From Nocardioidaceae bacterium (lineage in GTDB: Bacteria; Actinomycetota; Actinomycetes; Propionibacteriales; Nocardioidaceae): a stretch of 64,000 nt of DNA. Shown piece by piece: positions 8,389-27,511 of this stretch (the first letter of the stretch is position 1; each line of letters begins with the position of its first letter). The position numbers and the translations under genes were made by a program. Location of the stretch: assembly GCA_035461195.1 (NCBI GenBank), contig DATHVS010000037.1, positions 70-64,069 of the forward strand, read 5' to 3'. Below the pieces are notes generated by a model. It made no database searches. It was given only the letters and a program-made list of their open reading frames with translations, and was not told the origin of the DNA.

Positions 8389-8543
8389 TACATTCCCTCC
8401 CTCAGGGGCTCACCCCGAGCCTCTCCCCCGCGGGCCGTCTGGACCAGAGCCCCTTCGGACCATGACGAGTGGGTAGAACGAGTTCCACTACGATCCGCGG
8501 GATCCGGCTTTCACGCCACAGCCTCAGGAGGCATGATCGTGGC

Positions 8544-9722
8544 GTGCACAGCAACCTCTCGGCCTCAGGCATCCTTGGCTCCGCGGGACGTGTCCCCCAC
8601 GTCGACACCGAGCCGCTGCTCAGCAGCGACCTGACCCTGGCCGGGCGGCGCCTGCCGTTGACGGCCACGGCGAGGATCTACGTCTGCGGCATCACGCCCT
8701 ACCTCGTCACCCACCTAGGGCACGCCTCGACGTTCGTCTGGGCCGACGTGGTCCAGTCGGTGGTCCGGCTCGCCGGAGTGGAGGTGGACACCTGCCGCAA
8801 CGTCACCGACGTCGACGACGTGCTCACCGCCGCAGCCCTCGAGCACGGCCGGCCCTACGACGAGTTCGCGCTGACCCAGGAGTTCCTCTTCGACCGCGAC
8901 ATGCGCGCCCTGGGCAACAAGGCGCCCGACCACACGCCCCACGCACGCCTCCACGTCGCCCACGTGACCCAGCTCGCCGCCGCCCTCCTCACGACGGGCC
9001 ACGCCTACGAACGCGACGGCTTCGTGTACTTCCGCGGCGACGGCGTGGCCACCCGCAGCGGCCTCAGCGAGAAGGAGGCGCTCGAGCGGTCCCGCGCCTT
9101 CGGCGACCAGCCCGACGACACCCACCGCGACTCCCCGTTCGACGTACCCGTCTGGCGACCCTCCCCCGAGGACGAGCCGGCGTGGCCGAGCCCGTGGGGC
9201 TGGGGCCGGCCCGGCTGGCACTCGGAGTGCGCTGCGATGGCCTGGGCGACGTTCGGGACCAGCGTCGACGTGATCGTCGGCGGCGAGGACCTCACCTACC
9301 CTCACCACGCCTACCAGTGCGCGATGGTTGAGGCGGCCAGCGGCGTCGCTCCCTTCGCCCGCCGGCAGGTCCACATCGGCGCCGTCCACCAGGACGGCCG
9401 CAAGATGGCGAAGTCCACGGGCAACATGACCCTCGTCCGGGACCTCCTGGCCGCCCACCGCCCGGCGGCGGTGCGTCTGATGATCGTCAACCGCGTCTGG
9501 CACCGGTCCTGGGAGTACGCCGAACGCGAGGTCGACCGGGCGGAGAAGGCCCTCGACGAGCTCTACGGGGCCGCCGGCCGCACCCACGACAGCACCGAGG
9601 CCGACGAGCAGGTCGTGACGGCACTCCTCGAGGACCTCGACGTCCCCCGGGCCGTCGACGTCGCCACCCGGGAGGGCGGCAGCGCCGCCCGCCTCCTCCT
9701 GGAGATCCTCAAGCTGCGCTGA
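8544..9722 (+). CDS. MshC/cysteinyl-tRNA-synthetase-like cysteine ligase paralog (no anticodon-binding domain)
   Basis: YVCGITPY..THLGH, NVTDVDD, GRPGWHSEC, GGEDLTYPHH, KMAKS; only ~392 aa. GTG 8544 lies 6 nt after CATGAT (leaderless-like); start uncertain. Confidence 0.8.
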   Translation: MHSNLSASGILGSAGRVPHVDTEPLLSSDLTLAGRRLPLTATARIYVCGITPYLVTHLGHASTFVWADVVQSVVRLAGVEVDTCRNVTDVDDVLTAAALEHGRPYDEFALTQEFLFDRDMRALGNKAPDHTPHARLHVAHVTQLAAALLTTGHAYERDGFVYFRGDGVATRSGLSEKEALERSRAFGDQPDDTHRDSPFDVPVWRPSPEDEPAWPSPWGWGRPGWHSECAAMAWATFGTSVDVIVGGEDLTYPHHAYQCAMVEAASGVAPFARRQVHIGAVHQDGRKMAKSTGNMTLVRDLLAAHRPAAVRLMIVNRVWHRSWEYAEREVDRAEKALDELYGAAGRTHDSTEADEQVVTALLEDLDVPRAVDVATREGGSAARLLLEILKLR

Positions 9723-9827: not shown

Positions 9828-11123
9828 GTGGACTGGCTTCTCGACACGCGACACGACGACGCGACGAAGGCTGCCGTGCAGGCGGTGGGCGAGCACCTGC
9901 TGCGGCACGCCACGGACGAGTCGCGGGTCCCCGCTGCCGTCGCGGCGGTCGACAGCGCCCTCCGCTCCGCCGAGGGAGACTTGCTCTGGCTGCATCTCGA
10001 CTGGAGCCGCGTTCACCCGACCCTGCACCAGCGCCCCGTCGGTCCTGACGCCGCCCCGTCCCCCGATGACGGATTCGGGGCGATCCACGCCTCCGAACGC
10101 ACCACCTTGACCACGGCCGCCACGGGCGAGCCGACCTCAATCGACCTCACGGTCCCCAGGGAGGTCGTCATGAACTTCGACCCCGATGTAGCCGTCCTCG
10201 TAGATCTCGACCCCATCGGCGACGGAGCGTCGGCCGCCACAGTCGCCCTCGCCGCCGCTGCGGAGTCGCACCCGGTGGCCTCGCCCGACCAGGTGGCCGC
10301 GGCGGCCGGCGCGATGCTCGCGGACGCCACCCTCCGCGAGGAAGCCCATCTGAAGGATGCGGACGCGGCGATCGGCCACTTCGGACGCGTGCACGAGGCG
10401 CTCGGCGGCTCCTACCAGCGCGTCCACCTCGACGACCACGGTTTCGAGCTGCTCGTCGACAGGAGCCCTTTCGGCGCCGCCGTCTGCCAGATCCCCTCGC
10501 TCGCCCGCCTCACCGAGGCCATCGTCGGCCGGCTGGCGGCGCGCGTGCACGGCAAGGCCACGGTCGTCCACGACGAGAGCATCGCCCTCGGCGACCCCGC
10601 TGACCGGCTCCAGGTCCTCTTCGGCGACGTCGAGGACGAGGTCTGCGGCAGCACCTACCAGTGGCCGCCGGCGGGCACCCGCGAGTCGTCGGAGCCCTCC
10701 CCGCGCCTGGAGATGACGGTCTCCCTGCCGCGGCAGAGCCACAGCGTGCCGGTCATCCGGCGGCTGGCCGCCCAGATCCTGAGGGCCTTCGGCGTCTCGG
10801 GCGACAGCATCCACGACGTAGAGCTCGCGATATCCGAGGCGTGCGCCAACGTCATCCAGCACGCCATCGACAGCGAGGGCTACGAGGTGAGCATCGAGCT
10901 CGCCGCCGACCGGTGCGCGATCACGGTGCTCGACCGCGGCGATGGGTTCGACGCGACCCAGGTCCGGGACCAGGCGGACATCGACGCGGAGAGCGGGCGC
11001 GGGCTCAGCCTGATGCGCGCGCTCGTCGACAACCTCAACTTCGTCAGCGAACCCAAGGTCGGTGCGGTCGTGCACATGGTCAAGCAGCTCCACTACGACG
11101 ACAGCCACCCGTTCAGGAGGTGA
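9828..11123 (+). CDS. Composite signalling protein: MetOD1-like domain plus C-terminal RsbW-like (HATPase_c_2) kinase/anti-sigma domain
   Basis: C-terminal ELAISEACANVIQHA, DRGDGF, ESGRGLSLM; central SPFG..PSL..G.LAA..G.A.V..ESIA.GDP resembles MetOD1 (recalled); GAAAGG RBS 9 nt before GTG 9828. Confidence 0.7.
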   Translation: MDWLLDTRHDDATKAAVQAVGEHLLRHATDESRVPAAVAAVDSALRSAEGDLLWLHLDWSRVHPTLHQRPVGPDAAPSPDDGFGAIHASERTTLTTAATGEPTSIDLTVPREVVMNFDPDVAVLVDLDPIGDGASAATVALAAAAESHPVASPDQVAAAAGAMLADATLREEAHLKDADAAIGHFGRVHEALGGSYQRVHLDDHGFELLVDRSPFGAAVCQIPSLARLTEAIVGRLAARVHGKATVVHDESIALGDPADRLQVLFGDVEDEVCGSTYQWPPAGTRESSEPSPRLEMTVSLPRQSHSVPVIRRLAAQILRAFGVSGDSIHDVELAISEACANVIQHAIDSEGYEVSIELAADRCAITVLDRGDGFDATQVRDQADIDAESGRGLSLMRALVDNLNFVSEPKVGAVVHMVKQLHYDDSHPFRR

Positions 11124-11448
11124 GTGCCCCGCTGAGGGCGCCTCGCCCGGCGAGGTCCTCGGCGAGGAACTCCCGGAGCAGGTCCACGGCCTGGACGATC
11201 TTCTGGCTGCGGAGCGAGTAGAAGACGTTGCTGCCCGAACGGCGCGCGGAGACGATCCCACGCTCGCGGAGGACGGCGAGGTGCTGGCTGGCGTTGGACT
11301 GGGTGAAGCCGAGGGCGTCGCAGATGTCGCCGACGCTGAGCTCCCGGTCGCGCAGCTCGTTGATGATCAGCAGTCGTTTCGGGTCGGCGATCGCCTTGCA
11401 CACCCGGGCGTGGAGCTCCTGCAGCTGTGCAGCCACGTCCTGATCCAT
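11113..11448 (-). CDS. ArsR/SmtB family transcriptional regulator
   Basis: KAIADPKRLLII, SVGDI, QSNASQHLAVLRERGIV, RSGSNVFYSL. Confidence 0.92.
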   Translation of the reverse strand: MDQDVAAQLQELHARVCKAIADPKRLLIINELRDRELSVGDICDALGFTQSNASQHLAVLRERGIVSARRSGSNVFYSLRSQKIVQAVDLLREFLAEDLAGRGALSGALTS

Positions 11449-11477
11449 GCGTCCTCCCCTCGCCTCAGCAAGGCAAC

Positions 11478-11492
11478 AGTGTAGTTCCGGAC
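11478..11492 (-). promoter_or_regulatory. Putative -10 (TACACT) with GTCCGGAAC motif upstream of ArsR gene
   Basis: Minus strand GTCCGGAAC-TACACT; near copy at 13457-13472. Confidence 0.4.
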
Positions 11493-11518
11493 CGGCGGGA
11501 TGCGACCCACCGGCTGTT

Positions 11519-11878
11519 TCAGGTCTCGACCACCACCACGAAGACGAGGGCTGAGGCCGAGAGCAGCACGAGGCCGCCGGTGAGGAGCCTGGTCAGACCG
11601 TGCGCCAGAGGTGAGCGTCCTTCCTCGACCCGGCGCACTGCCGTCACGTAGCGCCGCTCACCCATCACGAGCAGCGCCAGGGCCAGGCCGAGCCCGCCCA
11701 GCCCGGGCGCGGCAACCACCAGGTCGCTGTCGGCGAGGTGGACGAGCAGGGCCGAGAACGCCGCGAGCGCGAGTGCGGTGCGCTGCCAGGCCATCGCGGT
11801 GCGCTCCGCGGCCAGCCCCACGTCGAGGGACGGCTCGGAACGCCGGCGATGACCCAGCACCCTGGTCAGCACGCTCAC
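11519..11878 (-). CDS. DUF202 (YidH-like) membrane protein
   Basis: GLAAERTAMAWQRTAL motif, 3 hydrophobic helices. Confidence 0.85.
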   Translation of the reverse strand: MSVLTRVLGHRRRSEPSLDVGLAAERTAMAWQRTALALAAFSALLVHLADSDLVVAAPGLGGLGLALALLVMGERRYVTAVRRVEEGRSPLAHGLTRLLTGGLVLLSASALVFVVVVET

Positions 11879-11886
11879 GGGGCGAC

Positions 11887-12264
11887 TTACCCCTGCACCA
11901 GGTCGTAGGCGACGAGGCCGAGGGCGGCGAAGGCGGCCAGCGCGAGCGCGGCCGCGACCAGCCTCGGCACCGGGGAGTGCGGGAGCCGCTCCCCGAGCCG
12001 CATGGCCCGCTCGTTGCGCTCCCAGTGCGCGTAGGCCACCGTTGCCACGACGCCGCCGAGCCCGACCAGCACGAAGCCCAGCAGGTGCCTCACCACCGAG
12101 AGCCCCGGCACGAACTGCACCACCGCGACGCCCGCGGCCATCAGTGCCAGGGCGGTGCGGACCCAGGCCAGGAAGGTACGTTCGTTGGCCAGGGTGAAGC
12201 GGTAGTCCGGGGTCTCACCCACCTCGTGCAGCGGGGTCCGCCCCGACCTGCGGGCTGTCGCCAT
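11887..12264 (-). CDS. DUF202 (YidH-like) membrane protein
   Basis: PDYRFTLANERTFLAWVRTAL motif. Confidence 0.9.
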   Translation of the reverse strand: MATARRSGRTPLHEVGETPDYRFTLANERTFLAWVRTALALMAAGVAVVQFVPGLSVVRHLLGFVLVGLGGVVATVAYAHWERNERAMRLGERLPHSPVPRLVAAALALAAFAALGLVAYDLVQG

Positions 12265-12268
12265 CTGC

Positions 12269-13408
12269 TCAGACCATCGACGTCGACGCGGCGCACTGGT
12301 TCTTGCCCACGTCGAGCACGTCGATCTCGTCCTCCGGCGGGGTGAGCTGGCCGGCGTTCACCTGACGGATCGTGTCGTAGAAGTCGGGGGCCGCAGGCAG
12401 CGAGGTGACGATCTCCTCGACGAACTTCTCCATCGCCTTCTCGTTGAGCAGGGTGGCAGTGAAGACGTCCTCGAGCGTGGTGACGACCAGCCCCTCGTCG
12501 TTGACCTCCTCGGGGATCGTCCAGTGCGCCGGGGCGATGATCGTCTGGGGGTCGAGGGGGCGAAGGCGCTCGTGGCAGCTGTGGAAGAGGTCCCGAGCCA
12601 GCTCCTCGGCCTGGCCGGTGAGGTCGGGGCGGCCCAGGCCGCGGACGAACACGGTGTCGCCGACGAGGAGCACCTTCTCGGCGACCAGCAGCGCGATGGT
12701 GCCGGGCGTGTGGCCGGGCAGGTGCATGCTCATCACCCGAACCTCGGCGGAGCCGAGGTCGAGGACGTCGCCGTCCTTGAGGGGGACGTTCGGGAACGGC
12801 ACGACCCCGCCGGCGTCCTCCGGGGGCAGGTGGTAGTCGACGCCGAGCTCCCGCGCCAGGGCGGGTCCGCCGCTGATGTGGTCGGCGTGGACGTGGGTGT
12901 CGACGACGTGGGTCACGGTCATGCCGTGCTCCTTGGCCGTGTCGAGGTAGGGCTGCGGGTCGCGGGTGGGGTCGACGATGACGCAGCTCTGGCCGGGGAC
13001 GCCGACGAGGTAGGACAGGCACGCCTTGGCCGGGCGCTGGAACTGCCACACACGTACCTCGCCCGGGAGGCCGGTGATCTCGAAGGGCACGAGCAGGCGG
13101 TTCCACGCATCGGTCCCTCCTTCGAGGGACCGGGTGTGCTTGCCGAGCTCGGCGAACTCCTCGGCGACGAGGGCCGACCCGTTGCCCTGGCCGCAGATCA
13201 CGACGGCCCCCTCCTTGGCCCGCTCGGCCTCGTCCTCGAGCTCCTCCATCACTCGGTAGACCGGCACGTTACGCGTCGGCACGGGTCGGCGGCCCTCGAC
13301 CGGGGCGGCCTCGAACTCGTCGACGTTGCGCACGTCGAGGATCTCGCTGACCCGGCCTTCGGCGATCTCCTGGAACAGCTCGAGCGGGGTGATGGTCATC
13401 TCGGCCAC
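12269..13408 (-). CDS. Rhodanese-persulfide dioxygenase fusion (YrkH/CstB-like MBL-fold)
   Basis: N-terminal LDVR...VICGQGNGS rhodanese; DTHVHADHISG, PGHTPG, GDTVF, C-terminal GKNQCA. Confidence 0.88.
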   Translation of the reverse strand: MAEMTITPLELFQEIAEGRVSEILDVRNVDEFEAAPVEGRRPVPTRNVPVYRVMEELEDEAERAKEGAVVICGQGNGSALVAEEFAELGKHTRSLEGGTDAWNRLLVPFEITGLPGEVRVWQFQRPAKACLSYLVGVPGQSCVIVDPTRDPQPYLDTAKEHGMTVTHVVDTHVHADHISGGPALARELGVDYHLPPEDAGGVVPFPNVPLKDGDVLDLGSAEVRVMSMHLPGHTPGTIALLVAEKVLLVGDTVFVRGLGRPDLTGQAEELARDLFHSCHERLRPLDPQTIIAPAHWTIPEEVNDEGLVVTTLEDVFTATLLNEKAMEKFVEEIVTSLPAAPDFYDTIRQVNAGQLTPPEDEIDVLDVGKNQCAASTSMV

Positions 13409-13456
13409 GGGTGGTCTCCCTGGGGAAAATTGGGTCTTGTTATATGCGCAAGCACG

Positions 13457-13477
13457 AATGTAGTGTCCGGACTCACA
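13457..13477. promoter_or_regulatory. Divergent promoter element: minus-strand -10 TACATT overlapping a CRP/FNR-like site AGTGT-CCGGAC-TCACA
   Basis: One perfect TCACA half-site with N6 spacing (13462-13477); GTCCGGAC motif shared with 11484-11492. Confidence 0.4.
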
Positions 13478-13518
13478 CTTGGCAACGCCTTCTTCTCGAG
13501 GAAAGGGAACGCGCAGCG

Positions 13519-14019
13519 ATGGCTGACAGCACGTCCGAGGACGTACCCGAGAGCATGACGATCGTCGCCTGGAGCGGTGACCTGGACAAGATGTGGCCGA
13601 CCCTGATCCTGGGCTCGACCGGTGCCGCCTACGGCATGCAGACCACCATCTTCTTCACCTTCTGGGGGCTCTACCCCCTCGTCCGCGACGACGTCCGGAT
13701 CACCGGCGACAACGCGATGACCAAGGCCCTGGCCGGGATGAACCGGCCCGGCATGAGCCACATGAAGCTCTCGAAGCTCAACATGGCCGGGGCCGGGGCG
13801 TGGATGATGAGGAAGCTGGCCAAGGACCACAAGGTGGCCAGCCCGAAGGAGCTGGTCGAGATGTGTACCGAGCTCGGGGTCAACCTCTGGCCCTGCGAGA
13901 TGACCATGGACCTCATGGGCCTTCGCCAGGACCAGCTCATCGAAGGGGTCGGTGAGCCGGTCGGCGCCGCGACGGCGCTCTCGGAGATGAGCAAGTCGCA
14001 GATCAACCTCTTCATCTGA
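13519..14019 (+). CDS. DsrE/DsrF-like sulfur relay protein (YrkE/DsrE2 type)
   Basis: IVAWSGDLDK, TIFFTFWGL, WPCEMTMDLMG, VGAAT. Confidence 0.9.
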   Translation: MADSTSEDVPESMTIVAWSGDLDKMWPTLILGSTGAAYGMQTTIFFTFWGLYPLVRDDVRITGDNAMTKALAGMNRPGMSHMKLSKLNMAGAGAWMMRKLAKDHKVASPKELVEMCTELGVNLWPCEMTMDLMGLRQDQLIEGVGEPVGAATALSEMSKSQINLFI

Positions 14020-14084
14020 CCCGCCACGACGGCCACGGCCGTCGTACCTCTCACCCACGAAACCGGCGAAGGAGCCACCCCGTC

Positions 14085-14318
14085 ATGGAGTACACCATCG
14101 ACCTCGTCATCGACGCCAAGGGCCAGAAGTGCCCCATGCCCGTGCTGCTGACCTCCCGCGGCATCAAGAAGATCGAGTCCGGGCAGGTCATGGTCGTCGA
14201 GGCGACCGACAGCGGTTCGAAGAGCGACATCCCCTCCTGGGCCAAGGACACGGGCAACGAGCTGATCGAGCAGAGCTCCGAGGACGGCGTCTACCGCTAC
14301 GTCATCCGGAAGAAGTAG
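14085..14318 (+). CDS. tusA: TusA-family sulfurtransferase
   Basis: IDAKGQKCPMP, ATDSGS..DIPSW. Confidence 0.9.
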   Translation: MEYTIDLVIDAKGQKCPMPVLLTSRGIKKIESGQVMVVEATDSGSKSDIPSWAKDTGNELIEQSSEDGVYRYVIRKK

Positions 14319-14323
14319 TCCCG

Positions 14324-15853
14324 GTGCAGTACGGATTCGCGATCGACCAACGCACCTGCATCGGCTGTCACGCCTGCACGGTCGCTTGCAAGACCGAGAA
14401 CGACGTGCCCCTGGGGCAGTTCCGCACCTGGGTGAAGTACGTCGACAGCGGCGAGTTCCCCGACACGACCCGCTCCTTCGGCGTGATGCGGTGCAACCAC
14501 TGCACCGACGCACCGTGCGTCAAGATCTGCCCGACCCAGGCGCTGTTCAAGCGTGAGGACGGCATCGTCGACTTCGACAGCGACCGGTGCATCGGCTGCA
14601 AGAGCTGCATGCAGGCCTGCCCGTACGACGCGATCTACATCGACGCGCAGTCCAACACCGCCGCCAAGTGCAACCTGTGCGCGCACCGGGTCGACAACGA
14701 CCTGGAGCCGGCCTGCGTGGTGGTCTGCCCGACCCACTCCATCTGGGTGGGCGACCTCGACGACGCGACGAGCGGTATCGCGAAGCTGGTGCGCACCGAG
14801 GAGACCCAGGTCCGCACCCCCGAGCAGAACACCGGCCCCAACGTCTTCTACCTCGGCGCCGACCAGGCGGTGCTCGACCCGCTGGCGGCGCCGGTGGACG
14901 ACACCTACATCTGGGCCAAGCCGGACCCACACCGGCTCGAGACCGCCGGCGACCTGCCCGGCAGCCCGCGGACGAAGGCCCGCACCACGCTGAACACCGC
15001 GCACCCTCGGCCGTGGGGCTGGAAGGTCGTCACCTACCTGTGGACCAAGGGCATCGGCGCCGGTGCCCTGGCGGTCGCAGCTCTGGCGGTCATCCTCGGC
15101 ATCGACCTCGGGGTCCTGGGTGACTACGTCGCCCCGGCCCTGGCGATCTTCGGGGCGGCGACGACCGGGGCGCTGCTGGTGCTGGACCTGAAGCGCCCCG
15201 AGCGGTTCCTGTACCTGTTCCTGAAGTCGAACTTCTCTTCGTGGCTGGTGCTCGGGGGATACGTCCTGACGCTGTTCACAGGCGGGTCGATCCTCTGGAT
15301 CCTGGCTGCGGCACTGGACATCGGCTGGGCGATGACGACGTTGGCGTGGCTGGCGGTCCCCTTCTCGGCGCTCATGGCCGGTTACACCGCGTTCCTGTTC
15401 GGCCAGGCCGAGGGCCGCGACCTGTGGCAGTCGCCGGTGCTCTTCTGGCACCTGCAGGCGCAGGCCGTGATGGTCGGTGCGGGCATCCTGGCGGTCGCTG
15501 GTCTGTTCCTGGACCTCTCGGACGCCGCGTGGACGCTGGTCATCGCCTCGTTCGTGATCGCCACGATGGCGCACCTGGTGATCCTCCTCATCGAGTACGC
15601 CGGCAAGCACAGCAGCCGGCAGGCCGCGACCGCGGCGCACGTGATCACGAGTGGCCGCTACGCCAAGACGTTCTGGATGGGCAGCGTGGTCCCGACCGTG
15701 CTGGCCGCCGCCGTCGGGGTGGTGGCGTGGCTGATGGGTGTCGACAGCACCTCGATGGTGCTGGTGGCGATCGCCGGCCTCGTCGTCCAGCCGGCGCTGC
15801 TGGCCTACGAGAGCGTCTTCGTCCGCGCGGGCCAGGACATGCCGCTGTCATGA
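14324..15853 (+). CDS. Fused 4x[4Fe-4S] ferredoxin and NrfD/PsrC-type membrane anchor (PsrB-PsrC-like)
   Basis: CIGCHACTVAC, CNHCTDAPCVKIC, CIGCKSCMQAC, CNLC..CVVVC, then WGWKVVTYLW, DLKRPERF and ~8 TM helices; GTG start 14324. Confidence 0.9.
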   Translation: MQYGFAIDQRTCIGCHACTVACKTENDVPLGQFRTWVKYVDSGEFPDTTRSFGVMRCNHCTDAPCVKICPTQALFKREDGIVDFDSDRCIGCKSCMQACPYDAIYIDAQSNTAAKCNLCAHRVDNDLEPACVVVCPTHSIWVGDLDDATSGIAKLVRTEETQVRTPEQNTGPNVFYLGADQAVLDPLAAPVDDTYIWAKPDPHRLETAGDLPGSPRTKARTTLNTAHPRPWGWKVVTYLWTKGIGAGALAVAALAVILGIDLGVLGDYVAPALAIFGAATTGALLVLDLKRPERFLYLFLKSNFSSWLVLGGYVLTLFTGGSILWILAAALDIGWAMTTLAWLAVPFSALMAGYTAFLFGQAEGRDLWQSPVLFWHLQAQAVMVGAGILAVAGLFLDLSDAAWTLVIASFVIATMAHLVILLIEYAGKHSSRQAATAAHVITSGRYAKTFWMGSVVPTVLAAAVGVVAWLMGVDSTSMVLVAIAGLVVQPALLAYESVFVRAGQDMPLS

Positions 15854-15919
15854 CCCTCCCGACGGCGACACCGCGATGGCCAGGCCGCACACCCCTCAGA
15901 TCTTCTGGAAGGACTTGTC

Positions 15920-18796
15920 ATGACGGCTGAGACCGAGCGCGAGACGGCGCAGGTCCCGATGCCCGGGGCCCGCTCGCACGAGCGGCTGCGCAACTACCCG
16001 CCGCCGGAGGACTGGGACGCCCACGTGGAGTACGACTCCCGGTCCCACCCGAAGAAGGTGGCCCGCACCTACTCCCTGATCCCGACGATCTGCTTCAACT
16101 GCGAGTCCTCGTGCGGCCTCCTGGCGTACGTCGACCAGGACGACCTCTCGGTCAAGAAGTTCGAGGGCAACCCGGCGCACCCGGGCTCGCGCGGCCGCAA
16201 CTGTGCGAAGGGGCCCGCGACGATCAACCAGGTCCACGACCCCGAGCGGATCCTGTACCCGCGGAAGCGGGTCGGCGAGCGTGGCTCCGGCCAGTTCGAG
16301 CGGGTCTCGTGGGAGGAGGCGCTCACCGACATCGGGGGGCGCATCCGCCGGGCGATCGTCGAGGGCCGCAAGGACGAGGTGATGTACCACGTCGGCCGGC
16401 CCGGTGAGGACGGCTTTGTGGAGCGGGTGCTCCAGGCCTGGGGGGTCGACGGCCACAACAGCCACACCAACGTGTGCTCCTCGGGCGGTCGCACCGGCTA
16501 CACCCACTGGATGGGCTACGACCGGCCCTCGCCGGACTACGCCAACGCCAAGGCGATCCTGCTGCTGTCGTCCCACCTGGAGACCGGGCACTACTTCAAC
16601 CCGCACGCGCAGCGGATCATGGAGGCCAAGGCCAACGGCGCGAAGCTGGTCGCCATGGACCTGCGGCTGTCCAACACCGCGTCGCACGCGGACCTGTGGA
16701 TCGCGCCGTGGCCGGGCAGCGAGGCGGCGATCTTCTTGTCGGTGGCCTCCTACCTGCTGCGCACCCGCAAGATCGCCAAGGACTACCTCCGTCGCTGGGT
16801 GAACTGGGACGTCTACATGGAGCGTCTCCACCCCACCGACCCGCGCAACGACTTCGAGCTGTTTCTCGAGCGGCTGACCGAGGACTACGCGCAGTACACC
16901 TTCGAGTACGCCGCAGCCGAGGCGCACGTCCCGGTCGAGCAGGTCGAGGAGCTGGCCCGCATCGTCGCCGACGCCGGCACCCGGCTGGCCACGCACACGT
17001 GGCGCTCGGCCGCGGCGGGCAACCTCGGCGGCTGGCAGATCACGCGCAGCCTGTTCTTCCTCAACGTGCTCACCGGCAGCGTCGGGACCGTCGGCGGCAC
17101 CCACCCCAACGGCTGGGACAAGTTCATCGCGCACTTCCCGGAGATGCCCGAGGCCAACGAGGAGTGGAGCGAGTTCCTGTGGCCACAGGAGTACCCGCTG
17201 ACCACCAACGAGATGTCGATCCTGCTGCCGCACCTGCTCAAGGACGGTCGTGGCAGCGGGCACCTCGAGGTGTACTTCAGTCGCGTCTACAACCCGCTGT
17301 GGGTCAACCCCGACGGGTTCACCTGGATCGACGTGCTGAAGGACGAGTCCAAGATCGGTCTGCACGTGGCGCTCACGCCGACCTGGAGCGAGTCGGCCAC
17401 CTTCGCCGACTACGTCCTGCCGATGGGCCACGCCTCGGAGCGCCACGACACGATGTCGTTCGAGACCCACGCCTCGAAGTGGATCGCCTTCCGCCAGCCG
17501 GTGGGCCGGGTGGCCATGGAGAAGCGCGGCATGCCCTACCAGGACACCCGGGACGGCAACCCCGGCGAGGTCTGGGAGGAGAACGAGTTCTGGTTCGACC
17601 TGTCCTGGAAGATCGACCCGGACGGCTCCCTCGGGATCCGGAGGTACTTCGAGTCCAAGGAGCGTCCGGGCGAAAAGATGACCCAGGACGAGTACTACGA
17701 CATCCTCTTCGCCAACAGCGTCCCGGGCCTCCCCGAGGCGGCCGAGGCGCAGGGCATGACGCCACTGCAGTACATGCGCAAGTACGGCGTGTTCGAGGTC
17801 GCCAAGGAGGTCTACCGGCTCGACGAGCGCCCCCTGACCGAGGCCGAGCTCGCGGGGGCCGAGCCCGACGAGAGAGGCGTGCTCCGCAAACCGGTGACCC
17901 TGGAGTCCCAGCCGCCGCTGGTCGGTGAGGCCGGCGCCGTGGGCCTCGTCCAGGAAGACGGCTCGAAGGTGCAGGGCTGGCTCTCCCCGTCGCGCAAGCT
18001 CGAGCTGTACTCCACGACGCTGGCCGACTGGGGCTGGCCTGAGTACGCCACGCCGGGCTACATCGAGTCCCACGTCTCCGCGAAGCGGATCGACCGCAGC
18101 AGCTCGGAGTTCGTGCTCATGCCGAACTTCCGCCTGCCCACGCTCATCCACACCCGCTCGGGCAACGCGAAGTTCCTCAACGAGATCGCCAACACCCACC
18201 CGCTGTGGATGAACAAGGACGACGCCGCGCAGATGGGCGTCAAGACCGGGGACCTGGTCCGGCTGACCACCGAGATCGGCCACTTCGTCGCCCGCGTCTG
18301 GGCGACCGAGGCGATCCGTCCCGGCGTCACCGGCCTGTCGCACCACATGGGCCGCTGGATGCAGGAGGACCACCCCGGCAGCCGCTGGGTGATGGGCAAG
18401 GTCAAGCTCGACCGGTCCGACGACGGTATCTGGAAGCTCCGCTACACCGACGGCGTCAGGCCCTTCAAGAGCGAGGACCCCGACTCCGAGCGGATCTACT
18501 GGGACGACCCGGGGGTGCACCAGAACCTCGCCTTCCCGGTCCAGCCGGACCCGGTGTCGGGCATGCACTGCTGGCACCAGAAGGTGCGCATCGAAAGGGC
18601 TCGCGAGGGCGACAGGTACGGCGACGTCGAGGTCGACGTGAACAGGTCGCGTGAGGTCTACAAACGGTGGCTGGCGATGACCCGCCCCGGCCCCGGCCCC
18701 GACGGGCTGCGCCGGCCGGAGTTCATGATGCGGCACGTGACCCCGAAGCGGTCGGCGTACCGCGTCGCCACGGCCGGTGCCGGAGGGAACGCCTGA
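15920..18796 (+). CDS. Mo-bisPGD (DMSO reductase family) oxidoreductase catalytic subunit, Psr/Ttr/Soe-like, no Tat signal
   Basis: CFNCESSC..NCAKG Fe-S motif, HDPERILYP, HTNVC putative Cys ligand, ADYVLP, C-terminal binding domain; no RRxFL leader. Confidence 0.9.
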   Translation: MTAETERETAQVPMPGARSHERLRNYPPPEDWDAHVEYDSRSHPKKVARTYSLIPTICFNCESSCGLLAYVDQDDLSVKKFEGNPAHPGSRGRNCAKGPATINQVHDPERILYPRKRVGERGSGQFERVSWEEALTDIGGRIRRAIVEGRKDEVMYHVGRPGEDGFVERVLQAWGVDGHNSHTNVCSSGGRTGYTHWMGYDRPSPDYANAKAILLLSSHLETGHYFNPHAQRIMEAKANGAKLVAMDLRLSNTASHADLWIAPWPGSEAAIFLSVASYLLRTRKIAKDYLRRWVNWDVYMERLHPTDPRNDFELFLERLTEDYAQYTFEYAAAEAHVPVEQVEELARIVADAGTRLATHTWRSAAAGNLGGWQITRSLFFLNVLTGSVGTVGGTHPNGWDKFIAHFPEMPEANEEWSEFLWPQEYPLTTNEMSILLPHLLKDGRGSGHLEVYFSRVYNPLWVNPDGFTWIDVLKDESKIGLHVALTPTWSESATFADYVLPMGHASERHDTMSFETHASKWIAFRQPVGRVAMEKRGMPYQDTRDGNPGEVWEENEFWFDLSWKIDPDGSLGIRRYFESKERPGEKMTQDEYYDILFANSVPGLPEAAEAQGMTPLQYMRKYGVFEVAKEVYRLDERPLTEAELAGAEPDERGVLRKPVTLESQPPLVGEAGAVGLVQEDGSKVQGWLSPSRKLELYSTTLADWGWPEYATPGYIESHVSAKRIDRSSSEFVLMPNFRLPTLIHTRSGNAKFLNEIANTHPLWMNKDDAAQMGVKTGDLVRLTTEIGHFVARVWATEAIRPGVTGLSHHMGRWMQEDHPGSRWVMGKVKLDRSDDGIWKLRYTDGVRPFKSEDPDSERIYWDDPGVHQNLAFPVQPDPVSGMHCWHQKVRIERAREGDRYGDVEVDVNRSREVYKRWLAMTRPGPGPDGLRRPEFMMRHVTPKRSAYRVATAGAGGNA

Positions 18797-19935
18797 TGAG
18801 CCTGCTCTCTCGCCGCCGACCCGCCGTCGAGGTCGACCTCGCCGCGGTGCGGACCGCGCTCGGCACGGTCGAGGATCCCGAACTGCACCTGCCTCTGGAC
18901 GAGGCGGGCATGCTCGGGGACCTCGACGTTGACCGGTCGGGCACCGTCAGGGTGAGCGTCAAGCTCACCACGCCCGCCTGCCCGATGAAGGACACCCTCG
19001 CCCGCGAGGTCACCGAGGCCGTGAGCAAGGTTGCCGGCGTCGAGCGGGTCGAGGTCTCCTTCGGCGCGATGAGCGAGAACGAGAAGATGCGTCTCGCCCA
19101 GCGCCTGCGCGGTGACAACCCCGACGGTGGCGGCCACCCGTTCGGGGTCGACTCGCAGACCCAGGTCTACGCGATCGCCAGCGGCAAGGGCGGCGTCGGG
19201 AAGTCCACCGTCACCGCGAACCTCGCGGTCGCGCTCGCGAACCAGGGCAAGCGGGTGGGCGTCCTCGACGCCGACGTGTGGGGCTACTCGATCCCCCACC
19301 TGTTCGGCGTACGCCGGGCGCCGATCGCGATCAAGGGGATGATGCTCCCGGTCGAGGCCCACGGCGTCTCGCTCATGTCGGTCGGCTTCTTCGTCAAGGA
19401 CGAGGAGCCGGTCGTCTGGCGCGGCCCGATGCTCCACAAGGCGCTCGAGCAGTTCCTCGGCGACGTCCACTGGGGCGAGCTCGACGTGCTGCTCATCGAC
19501 CTCCCGCCCGGGACCGGCGACATCACCATGTCGCTGCTCGAGCTCGTGCCGGACGCGGCCCTCATCGCGGTGACCACGCCGCAGCCCGCTGCCCAGACGG
19601 TGGCGGAGCGGGTGGGCAGGATGGCTCGCAACGCCCGCATGCCCGTGGCCGGCGTCATCGAGAACATGTCGGCGCTCGTGTGCGGGTCGTGCCACGAGAG
19701 CACCGCACTGTTCGGGTCGGGTGGCGGGGAACGGCTCGCCACGGCGATCGACGCGCCTCTGCTCGGGCAGGTGCCGCTCGACCTCGAGCTGCGCGAGGGC
19801 GGTGACGCCGGGGTCCCGGCGATGGTCTCGGCGCCCGGCTCGCACTCGGCACAGGAGCTACGGCGTGTCGCAGCCGCCCTGCCCGTCGTACGCCGGAGCC
19901 TGGTCGGCCGCTCCCTACCGCTCTCGGTCGTCTGA
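18796..19935 (+). CDS. mrp: Mrp/NBP35 (ApbC) Fe-S cluster carrier ATPase
   Basis: N-terminal DPE..LTTPACP, SGKGGVGKST, WRGPM, DLPPGTGD, ENMS..CGSC; TGATG overlap with Mo enzyme. Confidence 0.92.
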   Translation: MSLLSRRRPAVEVDLAAVRTALGTVEDPELHLPLDEAGMLGDLDVDRSGTVRVSVKLTTPACPMKDTLAREVTEAVSKVAGVERVEVSFGAMSENEKMRLAQRLRGDNPDGGGHPFGVDSQTQVYAIASGKGGVGKSTVTANLAVALANQGKRVGVLDADVWGYSIPHLFGVRRAPIAIKGMMLPVEAHGVSLMSVGFFVKDEEPVVWRGPMLHKALEQFLGDVHWGELDVLLIDLPPGTGDITMSLLELVPDAALIAVTTPQPAAQTVAERVGRMARNARMPVAGVIENMSALVCGSCHESTALFGSGGGERLATAIDAPLLGQVPLDLELREGGDAGVPAMVSAPGSHSAQELRRVAAALPVVRRSLVGRSLPLSVV

Positions 19936-19946
19936 GCCACGGCGGC

Positions 19947-21215
19947 ATGCACACCTGGCAGGTGCGGGACTTCGTACCCGAGGACCTCGAGGATCTCGTC
20001 CGCCTCGACGACGCCTCGACCACCACGAGACAGCCGCCGTTGTTCGGGCTGCCCGACGTGGTCGCCGCGCTCACGGCCCGCCAGCCTGCCGTGGTGGCGG
20101 TGGCCCACGGGCGGATCATCGGCTCCGCGGTGAGCCGGGTCGAGGGCGATCGCGCCTGGCTGCTCCGGCTGGCGCTCGCACCCGACTGGCGCGGGAGGGG
20201 GCTCGGCAGCGCGCTCCTCGGCGCGCTCGAGCACCGGCTGGTCGCGTCGGGGGTACGCCGGCTGAGTGCGATCCTGCCCGAGGCGGAGACCGGCACCCAG
20301 GCCTTCGTCAACAGCGGTTTCACCAGAAGGACGGGCCTGACGTACTTCGAGAAGACCGAGATGGTCACACCGCACACCGCGAACCTTCTCTCCTCGCTGG
20401 GCGGCAGCGTCCCGGCCGCAGGGCTGTGGGACCAGGTCGCGGGGATGGCCACCGAGAAGGAGCTGGTCGAGAGGCGGCTGGTGCTGCCGCTCGCGCGGCC
20501 GGTGGAGGCCCACGAGCACGGCGTCGAGCCACCCCGCGCCGTCGTCCTCTTCGGCCCACCCGGCACCGGCAAGACCACCTTCGCCAAGGCGGTGGCGAGC
20601 CGGTTGTCGTGGCCGTTCGTGGAGCTGTTCCCCAGCCGTCTCGCTGCTGAGGACGGCGGTCTCGCGGCGGGCATCGGCGCGGCTTTCGCCCGGATCGCCG
20701 AGCTCGACAACGTGGTGGTGTTCATCGACGAGGTCGAGGAGATCGCCGCGGCACGCGAGGCCGGAGGCCCTTCGGTCGCGGTGGTCAACGAGCTGCTGAA
20801 GGCCCTCGTCGGCTTCCGGGAACGCGACGGGCGGCTGCTCGTCTGCGCCACCAACTCCGTGCGCGCCCTCGACAGCGCCTTCCTCCGCCACGGCCGGTTC
20901 GACTACGTGCTGCCCATCGGCCCACCGGACGAGACGGCCCGCGCCGCGATGTGGACCAGCCACCTCGCCCGCACCGAGGACGACGTCGACACGACCGCCC
21001 TGGTGGGGGCGAGCACGAACTTCACGCCGGCCGACATCGCTCACGCGGCGCGTACGGTGGCCCAGAAGACCTTCGAGTGCACCGTGGACACCGGCCGCCG
21101 CTGTCGCGCGACCACCGCGGACTACGTGAGCACGCTCCAGGCAATGCGGCCCACGCTCACCGAGGAGATGGTGACGGCGTTCGACGAGGACATCACGGAG
21201 TTCGCGCGCACGTGA
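19947..21215 (+). CDS. GNAT acetyltransferase-AAA+ ATPase fusion
   Basis: RLALAPDWRGRGLGSALL (acetyl-CoA motif A); GPPGTGKT, FIDEVE, CATN, RHGRFD. Confidence 0.85.
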   Translation: MHTWQVRDFVPEDLEDLVRLDDASTTTRQPPLFGLPDVVAALTARQPAVVAVAHGRIIGSAVSRVEGDRAWLLRLALAPDWRGRGLGSALLGALEHRLVASGVRRLSAILPEAETGTQAFVNSGFTRRTGLTYFEKTEMVTPHTANLLSSLGGSVPAAGLWDQVAGMATEKELVERRLVLPLARPVEAHEHGVEPPRAVVLFGPPGTGKTTFAKAVASRLSWPFVELFPSRLAAEDGGLAAGIGAAFARIAELDNVVVFIDEVEEIAAAREAGGPSVAVVNELLKALVGFRERDGRLLVCATNSVRALDSAFLRHGRFDYVLPIGPPDETARAAMWTSHLARTEDDVDTTALVGASTNFTPADIAHAARTVAQKTFECTVDTGRRCRATTADYVSTLQAMRPTLTEEMVTAFDEDITEFART

Positions 21216-21231
21216 GCCGACGAGGAGGACG

Positions 21232-22686
21232 ATGACCCCGGTCAGCCGCCGCACCGTGCTCGGGCTGGGTGCGCTGGGGGTCGCGACTGCCGCTGTCGGA
21301 ACGGCAGGGGTGCTCACCTTGACCCGCCCGTGGCGCTCGACCCGTGACACCGTGGCCGGCGGGTCCCTGCGCGAGCCTGCGGTGCTCCGCAGCGAGGACG
21401 GCTCGCTCGAGGTGACCCTGACCGCGCGTTCCGGTGTCCACGAGGTCGCGGGCGTCCGGGCGCGCACCCTCGGCTTCAACGGCGGGCTGCCCGGCCCGAC
21501 CCTCGTCGTACGCCCCGGCGACCGGCTCCGGATCCGTCTGGTCAACGAGCTCGACGAGCCCACCAACCTCCACGTCCACGGTCTCCACGTCTCACCGAGG
21601 GACAACGGTGACAACGTCTTCGTCGAGGTGGCTCCCGGCGGGTCGTTCGACTACGAGCACCGGTTGCCCGAGGACCATCCTCCGGGTCTGTACTGGTACC
21701 ACCCGCACCACCACGGCATGGTCGCCGACCAGATCTACGGCGGCCTCTTCGGCGCGATCCTCGTGGAGGACCCCGAGCCGGTCGCGGTCGCCGCTGACCG
21801 GCTGCTCGTCGTCTCCGACATCACCCTCGACCCCGACGGCGGCGTCCTCCGGCCCTCCCCCATGGAGCAGATGATGGGCCGTGAGGGCGCGCTGGTGCTC
21901 GTCAACGGCCAGGCCAGGCCCCACGTCGAGGCCCGCAGCGGGGAGCGTCAGCGGTGGCGGGTGCTGAACGCCTGCACCTCGAGGTTCCTGTCTCTTCGGC
22001 TCGACGGGCACGAGCTGCACCTGCTCGGCATGGACGGCGGCCGCCACGCCGAACCCGTGCGCACCGAGCAGGTGCTCCTCGCCCCGGGCAACCGGGCGGA
22101 CCTGCTCGTCACCGTCGGCCGCGGCGACGGAGTCCTGCGCGCAGTCCCCTACGACCGCGGCGGCATGGGCATGGGGATGGGCGGAATGATGCGGGACACG
22201 CAGGAAGGGCCGGTGCGGCTGCTCGACCTCCGGGTCACCGGCGCGGCGGAACCGCCGCCCGGACTGCCCGTGTTCGCGGCTCCCCGGGACCTGCGCGACG
22301 AGGCCGTGGACGCCGACCGCGACCTCGTCCTGGCCATGGGAATGGGGATGGGGATGGGCCGGATGAGCTTCACCATCGACGGCCGGGAGTTTGCGGCCGA
22401 CCGGGTCGACCAGGCGGTGACGGCCGGTTCGGTCGAGGAGTGGACGATCCACAACGACAGCCCGATGGACCACCCCTTCCACCTGCACGTCTGGCCGATG
22501 CAGGTCCTCGAGGAGAACGGCCGCCGGCCTGACCGACCCACCTGGCTCGACGTGGTGAACGTCCCCGCCCGGGGCAGCGTGCGGATGCGGGTCGCCTTCG
22601 ACGGGTTCGACGGCCGCACGGTCTACCACTGCCACATCCTCGACCACGAGGACCGCGGGATGATGGGTGTGGTCGAGGCGACCTAG
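21232..22686 (+). CDS. Tat-exported multicopper oxidase with Met-rich inserts
   Basis: SRRTVLG leader; HVHG, WYHPH, HPFHLH, HCHILDHEDRGMM; MGMGMG segments. Confidence 0.95.
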   Translation: MTPVSRRTVLGLGALGVATAAVGTAGVLTLTRPWRSTRDTVAGGSLREPAVLRSEDGSLEVTLTARSGVHEVAGVRARTLGFNGGLPGPTLVVRPGDRLRIRLVNELDEPTNLHVHGLHVSPRDNGDNVFVEVAPGGSFDYEHRLPEDHPPGLYWYHPHHHGMVADQIYGGLFGAILVEDPEPVAVAADRLLVVSDITLDPDGGVLRPSPMEQMMGREGALVLVNGQARPHVEARSGERQRWRVLNACTSRFLSLRLDGHELHLLGMDGGRHAEPVRTEQVLLAPGNRADLLVTVGRGDGVLRAVPYDRGGMGMGMGGMMRDTQEGPVRLLDLRVTGAAEPPPGLPVFAAPRDLRDEAVDADRDLVLAMGMGMGMGRMSFTIDGREFAADRVDQAVTAGSVEEWTIHNDSPMDHPFHLHVWPMQVLEENGRRPDRPTWLDVVNVPARGSVRMRVAFDGFDGRTVYHCHILDHEDRGMMGVVEAT

Positions 22687-22697
22687 AATCGGCGGCG

Positions 22698-23060
22698 ATG
22701 CTGACGACCAAGCGACTCCTGCTGGGCATTGTGATGCTCGGCGTCGTCGGCATGCACGGACTCGCCGCGACCGGGGGTACGCCGGCCGCGCACCACGTCT
22801 GGGCGACGACGACGGCCGCCGCCTCTGCTCGCGCCGCCGACCACGTGCACACCTCGACGACTCCCGCCGACGACGAGGGCGCAACCGCTCTCGCGCTGTG
22901 CATGGCACTGCTGCTGGCCCTCGCCGGCGCGGTCCGGGCGGGACGACGTACGACATGGGTCGCGCAGCTCGACCGGGGGTCCCCTCCACTGCCGCTCCCC
23001 TTCCCACCGGTGCTGCGCGACAGGTCTCCGGTGCCACGGTTCACGGTGATGCGCTGCTGA
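22698..23060 (+). CDS. Small His-containing membrane protein of actinobacterial copper clusters (DUF6153-like)
   Basis: Two hydrophobic segments, MHGL..HH, position upstream of DUF305; TAGAAT 8 nt before ATG. Confidence 0.6.
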   Translation: MLTTKRLLLGIVMLGVVGMHGLAATGGTPAAHHVWATTTAAASARAADHVHTSTTPADDEGATALALCMALLLALAGAVRAGRRTTWVAQLDRGSPPLPLPFPPVLRDRSPVPRFTVMRC

Positions 23061-23114
23061 GGGGTGGTCCTTGCGCCACCGACCAGCACGTTTCGAACCG
23101 ATGAAGGAGAACAC

Positions 23115-23711
23115 ATGCGCCTCTCGCGCACCCTCGCCGCGGTCGCGGCCGCACTCACCCTGACCCTCGCCGGCTGTGCCTCGTCCGAGTCGTCGGCGGA
23201 CCCCAGCGGGTTCAACGACGCCGACGTGGACTTCGCCACCGACATGATCCAGCACCACGCCCAGGCCCTGGTGATGGTCGACATGACGATGGGCCGCGAC
23301 CTCGACCCCGAGATGGTCGAGCTGACCGAGGAGATCCGCGCCGCGCAGGCGCCGGAGATCGAGCAGATGGCCGACTGGCTCGAGGACTGGGACCAGCCGG
23401 TCCCGCAGACCAGCAGGGACCACGCCAACGCCCACGCCGACGACCACGGCGGGGACGACGGCGCGCAGATGGACGCCGACATGCCCGGCATGATGAGCGC
23501 CGAGGAGATGGACGCCCTCGAGGACGCCTCCGGCGAGGAGTTCCGGACCATGTGGCTGGAGATGATGATCGAGCACCACCAGGGTGCGGTCGAGATGGCC
23601 GAGACCGTGGTCGAGGAGGGTCAGAACGGCGAGGTTCGCGCCCTTGCGGAGGACGTCATCCGCACCCAGAGCGACGAGATCTCCACGATGCAGGACCTGT
23701 TGGAGGGCTGA
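23115..23711 (+). CDS. DUF305 (CopM-like) lipoprotein
   Basis: LAGC lipobox; FATDMIQHHAQA and MMIEHHQGA repeats, MPGMM. Confidence 0.9.
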   Translation: MRLSRTLAAVAAALTLTLAGCASSESSADPSGFNDADVDFATDMIQHHAQALVMVDMTMGRDLDPEMVELTEEIRAAQAPEIEQMADWLEDWDQPVPQTSRDHANAHADDHGGDDGAQMDADMPGMMSAEEMDALEDASGEEFRTMWLEMMIEHHQGAVEMAETVVEEGQNGEVRALAEDVIRTQSDEISTMQDLLEG

Positions 23712-23714
23712 GCC

Positions 23715-24575: not shown

Positions 24576-24599
24576 TCGGCGCCACCCACTCCTTGATCC

Positions 24600-24641
24600 A
24601 TACCCCCCGCGGGTATATGGTAAGGATACCCCCTAGGGGTT
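24600..24641. promoter_or_regulatory. Two CsoR-type operators (ATACCCCCCGCGGGTAT; ATACCCCCTAGGGGTT)
   Basis: TAC-C-tract/G-tract-GTA pseudo-palindromes immediately upstream of csoR RBS AGGAGGAGG. Confidence 0.8.
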
Positions 24642-24656
24642 TAGGAGGAGGACGGT

Positions 24657-24950
24657 ATGGCACACGTGCAGCCCGGGTACATCGCTGAGAAGCAGGCCCA
24701 CCTGAACCGGCTCAAGCGCATCGAGGGACAGGTCCGCGGCATCCAGCGGATGGTCGACGAGGACACCTACTGCATCGACATCCTCACGCAGGTGTCGGCG
24801 GTGACGAAGGCCCTCGAGACAGTCGCTCTCTCCCTGCTCGACGAGCACCTGCGCCACTGCGTCAGCGACGCGGTGCGTGAGGGCGGCGACGTGGCCGACG
24901 AGAAGCTCACCGAGGCCTCCGCGGCGATCGCCCGCCTCGTCCGTTCCTGA
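24657..24950 (+). CDS. csoR: Copper-sensing repressor CsoR
   Basis: RLKRIEGQVRGI, YCIDILTQ, HLRHC (C-H-C copper ligands). Confidence 0.92.
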   Translation: MAHVQPGYIAEKQAHLNRLKRIEGQVRGIQRMVDEDTYCIDILTQVSAVTKALETVALSLLDEHLRHCVSDAVREGGDVADEKLTEASAAIARLVRS

Positions 24951-24973
24951 CCACGACACGAGAAGGAGTCACT

Positions 24974-25192: not shown

Positions 25193-25222
25193 CGCGACCC
25201 ACCAGGGGAGGAGGCAGGACCC

Positions 25223-27511
<2,289 letters not shown>

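Follow-up and report, generated by a model that had tools for sequence, protein, structure and literature searches.

The window analysed here is a 64,000-nucleotide stretch of DNA from a Nocardioidaceae bacterium (contig DATHVS010000037.1, positions 70 to 64,069). It carries a gene for a paralog of MshC, which ligates cysteine to glucosaminyl inositol (GlcN-Ins) in mycothiol synthesis, and of cysteinyl-tRNA synthetase (CysRS). The gene stands before a gene for an RsbW-like protein and a locus of sulfur genes, and an earlier note on this DNA had suggested that its product adenylates cysteine independently of tRNA, making a variant thiol or persulfide carrier for the neighbouring PDO/TusA system or cysteinylating a protein or small molecule. 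We tentatively propose that the protein belongs to a family of accessory cysteine-adenylating ligases with an acceptor of their own. The open reading frame spans 8469-9722 on the forward strand, and because the close homologues found in the database search are all 392 aa long, the start was placed at the GTG at 8544. The 392-aa protein matches Pfam tRNA-synt_1e, the catalytic domain of class-I CysRS, with E=4e-71, and the similarity therefore reflects homology rather than chance. The motifs that had been described as intact were all located in it: VCG (residue 47), CGITPY (48), HLGH (57), HSEC (226), YPHH (252) and KMAKS (287), with LVTH at residue 54. The Zn ligands C48, C229 and H254 correspond to C43, C231 and H256 of Mycobacterium smegmatis MshC and to C28, C209 and H234 of Escherichia coli CysRS. 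The alignment also places the alpha-amino binders at T51 and T88 (MshC T46 and T83), the HIGH-motif residues at H57 and H60 (MshC H52 and H55) and the KMSKS-motif residues at K287 and K290, K287 being equivalent to MshC K289. A tblastn search with the protein found no second ligase copy in the window. The window itself occurs in soil metagenome DNA runs only, one of which contains 97% of its sampled words, and in no RNA run.

Residue conservation was followed in an alignment of 116 family members, 116 MshC, 60 CysRS and 25 Chloroflexota proteins, with the numbering checked on the Zn ligands, and its breadth was re-checked on 75 species-level members that are 50-88% identical. Conservation among these 75 is 100% for C48, G49, T51, Y53, H57, H60, T88, W225, C229, H254 and K290 and 97% for K287; the same activation-site residues are conserved in 116 close members. 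In MshC structures, these residues hold the Zn ion, the amino group of cysteine and the adenylate (PMC9736012). The alignment thus indicates that the site forming Cys-AMP from cysteine and ATP is retained in the family, and cysteine would be its substrate. While this site is kept, residues invariant or nearly so in tRNA-charging CysRS are lost, in agreement with the earlier suggestion of a cysteine-adenylating enzyme that does not use tRNA. In E. coli CysRS numbering, K73 (90% in CysRS) is V93 in the family, F181 (100%) is V201, E236 (93%) is A256, N237 (92%) is Y257, the Zn ligand E238 (100%) is Q258, and Q241 (100%) is M261. MshC is also altered at five of these six positions (K73, F181, N237, E238 and Q241) and keeps E236 as its E258. 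The Chloroflexota group retains E238, Q241 and F181.

The family departs from MshC as well. Relative to MshC, Q80 is replaced by R85, P88 by V93, R92 by A97, M181 by A179, R188 by F or Y186, R194 by D192, L204 by P202, E258 by A256, R294 by T292, R304 by L302, W343 by L340 and R344 by Y341; G190 is deleted, and the position of R210 is variable. The loop E187-R188-G189-G190-D191-P192-x-R194-P-G196-K197 (ERGGDPxRPGK), invariant in MshC, is not kept. Common to the family and MshC and absent from CysRS are I50, P52, T56, T63, the G187/D188 loop insertion, R273 and G285. The family has its own signature among the 75 species-level members, namely W66 and R85 (both 100%), V93 and A179 (both 99%), A97 (93%), V201 (95%), A256 (91%), Y257 (92%), Q258 (83%, with E in 15%) and A289 (99%). 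A 2026 docking study describes a channel in MshC beside the Cys-AMP site, between helices 178-188, 86-97 and 227-239 (PMC13156731), and several of the MshC-to-family substitutions fall in these helices. Taken together, the acceptor side resembles neither that of tRNA-charging CysRS nor that of GlcN-Ins-using MshC, and it looks like a third acceptor specificity. The replacement of DATH by LVTH, to which attention had been drawn, is real in the window and is a minor subclade trait: position 54 is D in 93% and L in 4% of the 75 members, and L54, present in 47 of 120 close clusters, is limited to the subclade of the window. V55 (MshC A50) is the sole family-wide change within this motif. Actinomadura members read DATH (for example at locus L054) and PHHAYE.

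Family models place the protein outside both known groups. It scores 253.3 bits against the MshC model TIGR03447, whose cut-off is 485.1, and 240.7 bits against the CysRS model TIGR00435, whose cut-off is 340; the latter match ends at profile position 332 of 466. On TIGR03447, the remaining family representatives reach 236-290 bits, compared with 518-631 for canonical MshC representatives. In a search against solved structures, the sequence scores were nearly equal for M. smegmatis MshC (199.7 bits) and E. coli CysRS (196.7 bits). An AlphaFold model built on a 40-sequence alignment had a pLDDT of 89 and a pTM of 0.88, with disorder limited to residues 1-25. Its best Foldseek match is MshC (8hfn), with query and target TM-scores (TMq and TMt) of 0.84 and 0.80 over 392 columns, followed by the E. 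coli CysRS-tRNA complex 1u0b with TMq 0.81; TMt is just 0.69 here because the extra domain of 1u0b is unmatched. The C-terminal anticodon-binding domain of CysRS is absent, and the protein ends at residue 392. The lack of this domain had been reported correctly, although it is not distinctive: in the model the domain architecture is that of MshC (~410 aa), which likewise lacks it.

A neighbour-joining tree of 106 sequences (301 columns, 100 bootstraps) separated a family clade from an MshC clade, each monophyletic in 100 of 100 bootstraps. The sister relation of the two is weak (46/100), and so is a super-clade of all truncated CysRS-like forms (55/100). On average, family members are 39% identical to MshC, 38% to the Chloroflexota group and 35% to CysRS, whereas MshC proteins from different orders are ~62% identical to one another. 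These scores and the tree bear out the view that the protein is a paralog distinct from characterised MshC and CysRS, and by sequence comparison the family is a third, separate clade of CysRS derivatives without an anticodon-binding domain, parallel to MshC. In a search of 1.84 billion cluster representatives, full-length family members scored 308-522 bits and the next full-length protein, of a different kind, 251; past the full-length family members the score fell from 391 to 251 bits, and lower tiers were Chloroflexota/Anaerolineae proteins at 215-250 bits and canonical MshC at ~185-192.

The database search returned a dense set of 391-398-aa proteins, 60-95% identical and mostly from Nocardioidaceae, which public annotation labels "cysteine--tRNA ligase" or MshC. 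One genome per species was scanned with the family peptides WPSPWGWG and RPGWH[AS]EC, and at least 564 stretches were confirmed as family relatives. The best 80 of these are 50-86% identical, and the family is present in at least 80 Actinomycetota species. Carriers among these 80 include Nocardioides, Marmoricola, Geodermatophilus, Pseudonocardia, Actinoplanes, Jidongwangia, Actinomadura, Cryptosporangium, Motilibacteraceae, Streptosporangiaceae, Trebonia and many metagenome-assembled genomes (MAGs). The sole label outside Actinomycetota among the matches listed is a 'Sphingomonas' MAG contig, which is probably mis-binned. PLSDB contained no family member; all matches in this plasmid database had <60% identity and were MshC or CysRS. 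As far as the literature could be reached, no description of an MshC paralog or of this clade was found. Reviews of aminoacyl-tRNA synthetase (aaRS) paralogs list just MshC and CysRS* for CysRS (PMC9437257), and a survey of class-I aaRS-like peptide ligases, which does not mention the clade, asks whether MshC is a one-off (PMC2922099).

We compared isolate assemblies that carry the family gene and read MshC-type and CysRS-type genes from second contigs. A Nocardioides isolate run (X35; 4.65 Mb of contigs at ~105x depth) carries the N. psychrotolerans locus L034 at 100% identity on a 21-kb contig. On a separate 100-kb contig of the same depth, only the HIGH-motif segment matches and continues as AFDLLNRAWR; on a third contig of 9.8 kb, again of the same depth, only the PHH segment matches, preceded by MAGKYLGPA and followed by ENEQAQSRAA. 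Of 236 canonical MshC proteins, 228 contain the pattern FD[LVI][LVI].R.W, which is absent from all 83 CysRS, 120 family and 25 Chloroflexota proteins; HHENE.AQ is found in 70 of the 83 CysRS, in one of the 25 Chloroflexota proteins and in no MshC or family member. Therefore, the Nocardioides isolate has family, MshC-type and CysRS-type genes, and the family gene is an extra paralog there, as read from signatures of ~20-30 residues per gene in isolates other than the window's organism. Actinomadura-like runs X26, X27 and X33 have a family gene ~90% identical to that of Actinomadura sp. WMMA1423, and each has a second contig reading NTYLAFDLVN(R), which is MshC-type; one of the three also has an ENEIAQS contig. 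The earlier note had asked for canonical mshC and cysS genes elsewhere in the window's genome; in relatives, an MshC-type and a CysRS-type gene were read in the Nocardioides isolate and MshC-type genes in the three Actinomadura-like isolates. Searches with canonical MshC queries matched just Mycobacteriales and Nanopelagicales/Frankiales/Streptacidiphilus.

Genes were called and clustered in 86 related loci and the window, and sulfur genes were located by tblastn. After the ligase itself, the largest cluster of neighbours consists of rhodanese and persulfide dioxygenase (PDO) proteins. Of the 86 loci, 21 have a PDO/rhodanese gene within 10 kb, and in 12 of these (11 after dropping one duplicate contig) the distance is at most 165 bp, where random scatter within 10 kb would put fewer than one of the 21 so close; the loci are phylogenetically non-independent, and the enrichment is a comparison without a formal statistic or p-value. 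DsrE2 occurs in 10 loci, TusA in nine, SulP in six and an Fe-S/NrfD subunit in 11. The gene next to the ligase is typically divergent and encodes a CstB-type protein of 450-475 aa with a metallo-beta-lactamase domain and a rhodanese. In L004, L034 and L036 such a gene is seen, in some cases together with a GntR/UTRA regulator gene that follows the ligase by 27-68 nt, and rhodanese genes lie upstream on the same strand in L057, L058 and L076. In a Micromonosporaceae MAG (L030), the distance from the ligase is 113 nt for TusA and 364 nt for DsrE2. Directly adjacent PDO/rhodanese cases come from N. psychrotolerans, a Geodermatophilaceae MAG and unclassified Actinomycetota MAGs, and Actinoplanes italicus is also among the sulfur-linked loci. 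The ligase-PDO/rhodanese linkage is thus recurrent but facultative, on strong qualitative evidence. Regulator genes lie 27-113 nt after the ligase in two subclades, GntR/UTRA in L004, L034, L036 and L060 and RsbW-like in the window, L001, L003 and L007; L013 has its GntR/UTRA gene 51 nt upstream instead. The co-occurrence with a MetOD1/RsbW gene that had been anticipated did not extend further, as this partner follows the ligase only in the window and these three of the 86 loci.

Other surroundings vary, and those in N. ferulae, the Pseudonocardiaceae and L006 have nothing to do with sulfur. In N. ferulae, where the upstream gene ends 7 nt before the ligase start, the context is an acyl-CoA oxidase gene, the ligase and ppa-dacB-tilS-hpt. 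Four Pseudonocardiaceae loci (L017, L021, L022 and L032) have the ligase between prfB-PadR-luciferase-like monooxygenase and ftsX-ftsE, with an EgtD-type histidine methyltransferase gene of the ergothioneine pathway three to four genes off. In L056 and L079, a transporter gene of the TDT/TehA/SLAC1 anion transporter family, which includes sulfite exporters, lies directly upstream on the same strand. At 9172-14704 of L006, the ligase is convergent with genes for a carrier protein (PP-binding), an AMP-binding ligase, E1 alpha and beta dehydrogenase subunits and a 507-aa protein. Chandra and Chater reportedly noted that a SCO1664-like gene normally accompanies mshC; as candidates for such a companion, the ~230-270-aa proteins downstream of some family genes were rejected, since they form no conserved cluster. 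tRNA genes were absent from 66 of 85 loci scanned, and none of the tRNAs found was SelC-like. A tRNA-Cys(GCA) gene lies 2.2-2.6 kb from the ligase in L027 (3929-4001), L050 (8039-8111) and L070 (13486-13558). These three cases represent two independent events, which is above expectation for a usually single-copy tRNA and, with such small numbers, a weak hint.

We therefore consider the family to be accessory cysteine-adenylating ligases of a third specificity, with an acceptor that is neither tRNA nor GlcN-Ins and a role in thiol or persulfide metabolism, and we assign this reading a probability of roughly 0.45. Cysteine would bind with its thiolate on the Zn held by C48, C229 and H254, and the HLGH and KMAKS motifs would activate it to Cys-AMP in an ATP-dependent manner. 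The cysteinyl group would then be transferred to a nucleophile other than tRNA or GlcN-Ins. A small-molecule amine is the likeliest acceptor, bound in a remodelled pocket of less basic and more aromatic character whose predicted lining is W66, R85, V93, A97, F186, D192, V201, A256, Y257 and Q258. In addition to canonical MshC and CysRS, the ligase would act as an accessory enzyme in low-molecular-weight thiol/persulfide homeostasis together with CstB-like persulfide dioxygenase-rhodanese, TusA and DsrE proteins. A more specific version, in which the product is a second cysteine-derived low-molecular-weight thiol or cysteinylated carrier other than mycothiol, serving CstB-like enzymes as persulfide acceptor or carrier, is speculative, and we hold it to be unlikely. 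MshC and CysRS* represent the two established functions of CysRS-derived enzymes outside normal translation. If the third specificity holds, the clade, which is conserved in Nocardioidaceae, Geodermatophilaceae, Pseudonocardiaceae, Micromonosporaceae, Actinomadura and others, would point to an unrecognised cysteine-ligation product. Its placement by PDO, rhodanese, TusA and DsrE genes offers an entry into sulfide and persulfide handling and touches the question of which thiol carries sulfane sulfur in mycothiol-using bacteria. Furthermore, the current labels "cysteine--tRNA ligase" and MshC can lead to miscounts of aaRS genes and mycothiol pathways in genomes and MAGs.

Several observations weigh against this proposal. 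No operon partner is universal across the 86 loci, and ~74% of loci lack sulfur genes up to a distance of 10 kb. The window's own sulfur locus runs convergently to the ligase, 1.4 kb away and beyond another gene, and it is absent from L003, a 78% identical relative in which the ligase and the RsbW-like gene are followed by the copper island. Thus, the sulfur linkage drawn by the earlier note holds as a recurrent arrangement in relatives that adjoin PDO, rhodanese, TusA or DsrE genes and fails for about three quarters of the loci. Among the matches listed, the family is confined to Actinomycetota, the phylum of mycothiol, and this distribution fits a mycothiol-related role too. DATH, PGK and the E of position 258 persist in distant family members, some of which may therefore retain an MshC-like acceptor. 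Finally, the acceptor-contacting residues discussed above are those suggested by conservation patterns.

One alternative is a second, divergent MshC isozyme, which would add cysteine to GlcN-Ins and supply more mycothiol, for example under sulfide or persulfide stress. This alternative seems unlikely to us, although the family shares a good deal with MshC: architecture and fold (a class-I CysRS fold of ~400 aa), the Zn ligands, GITPY loop, HIGH and KMSKS motifs, the residues that set both apart from CysRS, the restriction to Actinomycetota and a sister position in the neighbour-joining tree, if with 46% support only. Since CstB-type PDOs act on thiol persulfides, extra mycothiol nearby would also be plausible. 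However, the family scores about half the TIGR03447 cut-off, its identity to MshC is far below that between MshC of different orders, and R92, R188, R194, R210 and R294 are all replaced together with G190 and E258, along with the ERGGDPxRPGK loop and R304. The family gene also coexists with an MshC-type gene and often adjoins PDO/rhodanese genes, which is not the usual setting of MshC. A functional analogy with BshC, which adds cysteine to an amino-sugar acceptor in bacillithiol synthesis, is possible, but its fold and family are unrelated. Less probable again is a minimal tRNA-dependent CysRS, perhaps serving as a stress-resistant backup, with tRNA-Cys or some special tRNA as its substrate. 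A known enzyme of this kind is CysRS* of Desulfobacterales, a truncated paralog without the anticodon domain that coexists with the canonical enzyme and charges a SelC-like tRNA (Mukai et al. 2017, as summarised in PMC9437257). The protein has the same score and E-value against E. coli CysRS as against MshC, and the family has a homologous catalytic domain with the residues of Zn-thiolate recognition (1LI5, 1U0B) and shares WPSPWG-GRPGWH-EC with CysRS; W218, M232 and some positions of the connective peptide (CP) domain follow CysRS rather than MshC, and tRNA-Cys lies nearby in L027, L050 and L070. On the other hand, K73, F181, E236, N237 and Q241 are lost, E238 is Q in most members, most loci have no tRNA gene, the window has none near the ligase, and no SelB- or SelC-like partner occurs among the neighbours. 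Unlike CysRS*, the family belongs to another phylum and has no linked special tRNA, and the Nocardioides isolate has a CysRS-type gene besides the family gene. Like MshC, the protein is acidic (net charge -16); net charge and pI, tried as a proxy for tRNA binding, did not discriminate. Nearest outside the family are truncated CysRS-like proteins of Chloroflexota/Anaerolineae (P0131 and P0138-P0158; 375-435 aa), which share the GITPY loop and the missing anticodon domain. Unlike the family, they keep KMSKS in addition to E238, Q241 and F181, and their scores on the MshC and CysS models, 320-400 bits, fall between the two cut-offs. They may be minimal enzymes for tRNA charging or represent a further class of ligases.

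CARS enzymes have been reported to make cysteine persulfide, as the earlier note had mentioned, and a synthase of this kind would provide Cys-SSH to feed or buffer the neighbouring PDO/TusA system. The linkage to persulfide-handling genes and the retained KMAKS lysines would suit it. This idea is nevertheless improbable, because the family lacks the KIIK motif, which CARS needs for this activity and whose lysines bind PLP along with those of KMSKS (V93 stands for K73 and A96 for K76), and the strict conservation of HIGH and KMSKS favours adenylation chemistry. Most remote is a non-catalytic sensor of cysteine or ATP that, like HisZ, would feed a regulator, here the downstream RsbW-like or GntR/UTRA protein. 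The regulator genes close to the ligase in two subclades and in L013 are in line with it, but most loci have no adjacent regulator, and the catalytic residues are ~100% conserved, whereas degenerate aaRS paralogs usually lose them.

The surroundings of the ligase in the window are listed in Table 1. The ligase and the RsbW-like gene are separated by 81 nt, and L001, an 88% identical relative, has the same layout as the window. The sulfur locus runs from 11113 to 19935. Because the copper island directly follows the RsbW-like gene in L003, this locus looks like an insertion between the two.

Table 1. Features of the ligase region and the sulfur locus in the window
Feature	Position	Strand	Basis
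GGCATGATCG element, putative -10 box; CATGAT at 8532-8537	8530-8539	+	same decamer and spacing in 12 related loci
MshC/CysRS-like cysteine ligase paralog, 392 aa, GTG start	8544-9722	+	motifs intact, family model scores, AlphaFold pLDDT 89
Protein with MetOD1-like N-terminal region (weak match) and RsbW-type HATPase_c_2, 439 aa	9804-11123	+	profile matches
ArsR/SmtB-family regulator, BigR-like, under that model's cut-off; first gene of sulfur locus	11113-11448	-	
Two DUF202 small membrane proteins (11519-11878 and 11887-12264)	11519-12264	-	Pfam assigned via syntenic L001 genes
Rhodanese and metallo-beta-lactamase fold protein, persulfide dioxygenase-type fusion	12269-13408	-	profile matches
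DsrE2-family sulfur carrier	13411-14019	+	profile matches
TusA sulfurtransferase	14085-14318	+	
Fusion of 4Fe-4S (TtrB/DsrO-like) and NrfD-like membrane subunits	14330-15853	+	
Molybdopterin oxidoreductase, DMSO-reductase family (PhsA/Ttr-like)	15920-18796	+	
Mrp/NUBPL-type Fe-S cluster carrier ATPase, last gene of sulfur locus	18667-19935	+	

The DsrE2 gene probably starts near 13500, because its L001 orthologue is 172 aa long. Upstream of the ligase, GGCATGATCG ends 4 nt before the GTG, and CATGAT is followed by exactly 6 nt and the start codon. The element occurs with identical spacing in the window and in L001-L005, L007-L011, L016 and L043, 12 loci with different surroundings. It probably serves a leaderless transcript as -10 box, in line with a start at 8544. 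An E. coli-type promoter and terminator scan found none, as expected for a high-GC actinobacterial host. A search for an operator common to the ligase and sulfur-locus promoters gave no notable common 8-mer and no palindrome. Within the sulfur locus, TGTAGTGTCCGGAC lies at 13459-13472 in the intergenic region between the divergent PDO and DsrE2 genes, and the similar GTGTAGTTCCGGAC lies at ~11480, upstream of the ArsR-family gene. This motif is found within the sulfur locus only and is absent upstream of the ligase, and the two sites are candidates for an operator of the sulfur locus.

Beyond the sulfur locus, a 422-aa fusion of a GNAT acetyltransferase and an AAA ATPase is encoded at 19947-21215. 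It is followed by the copper-resistance island at 21232-27511, with genes for a multicopper oxidase, DUF6153 and DUF305 proteins, a 286-aa protein, CsoR, a CopZ-like HMA protein and the P-type ATPase CopA. Further away, ARAGORN called a 97-nt tRNA-Ala(GGC) at 43992-44088 with its anticodon at position 37. This is unusually long for a bacterial tRNA-Ala, and it could contain an insertion or be a false call.

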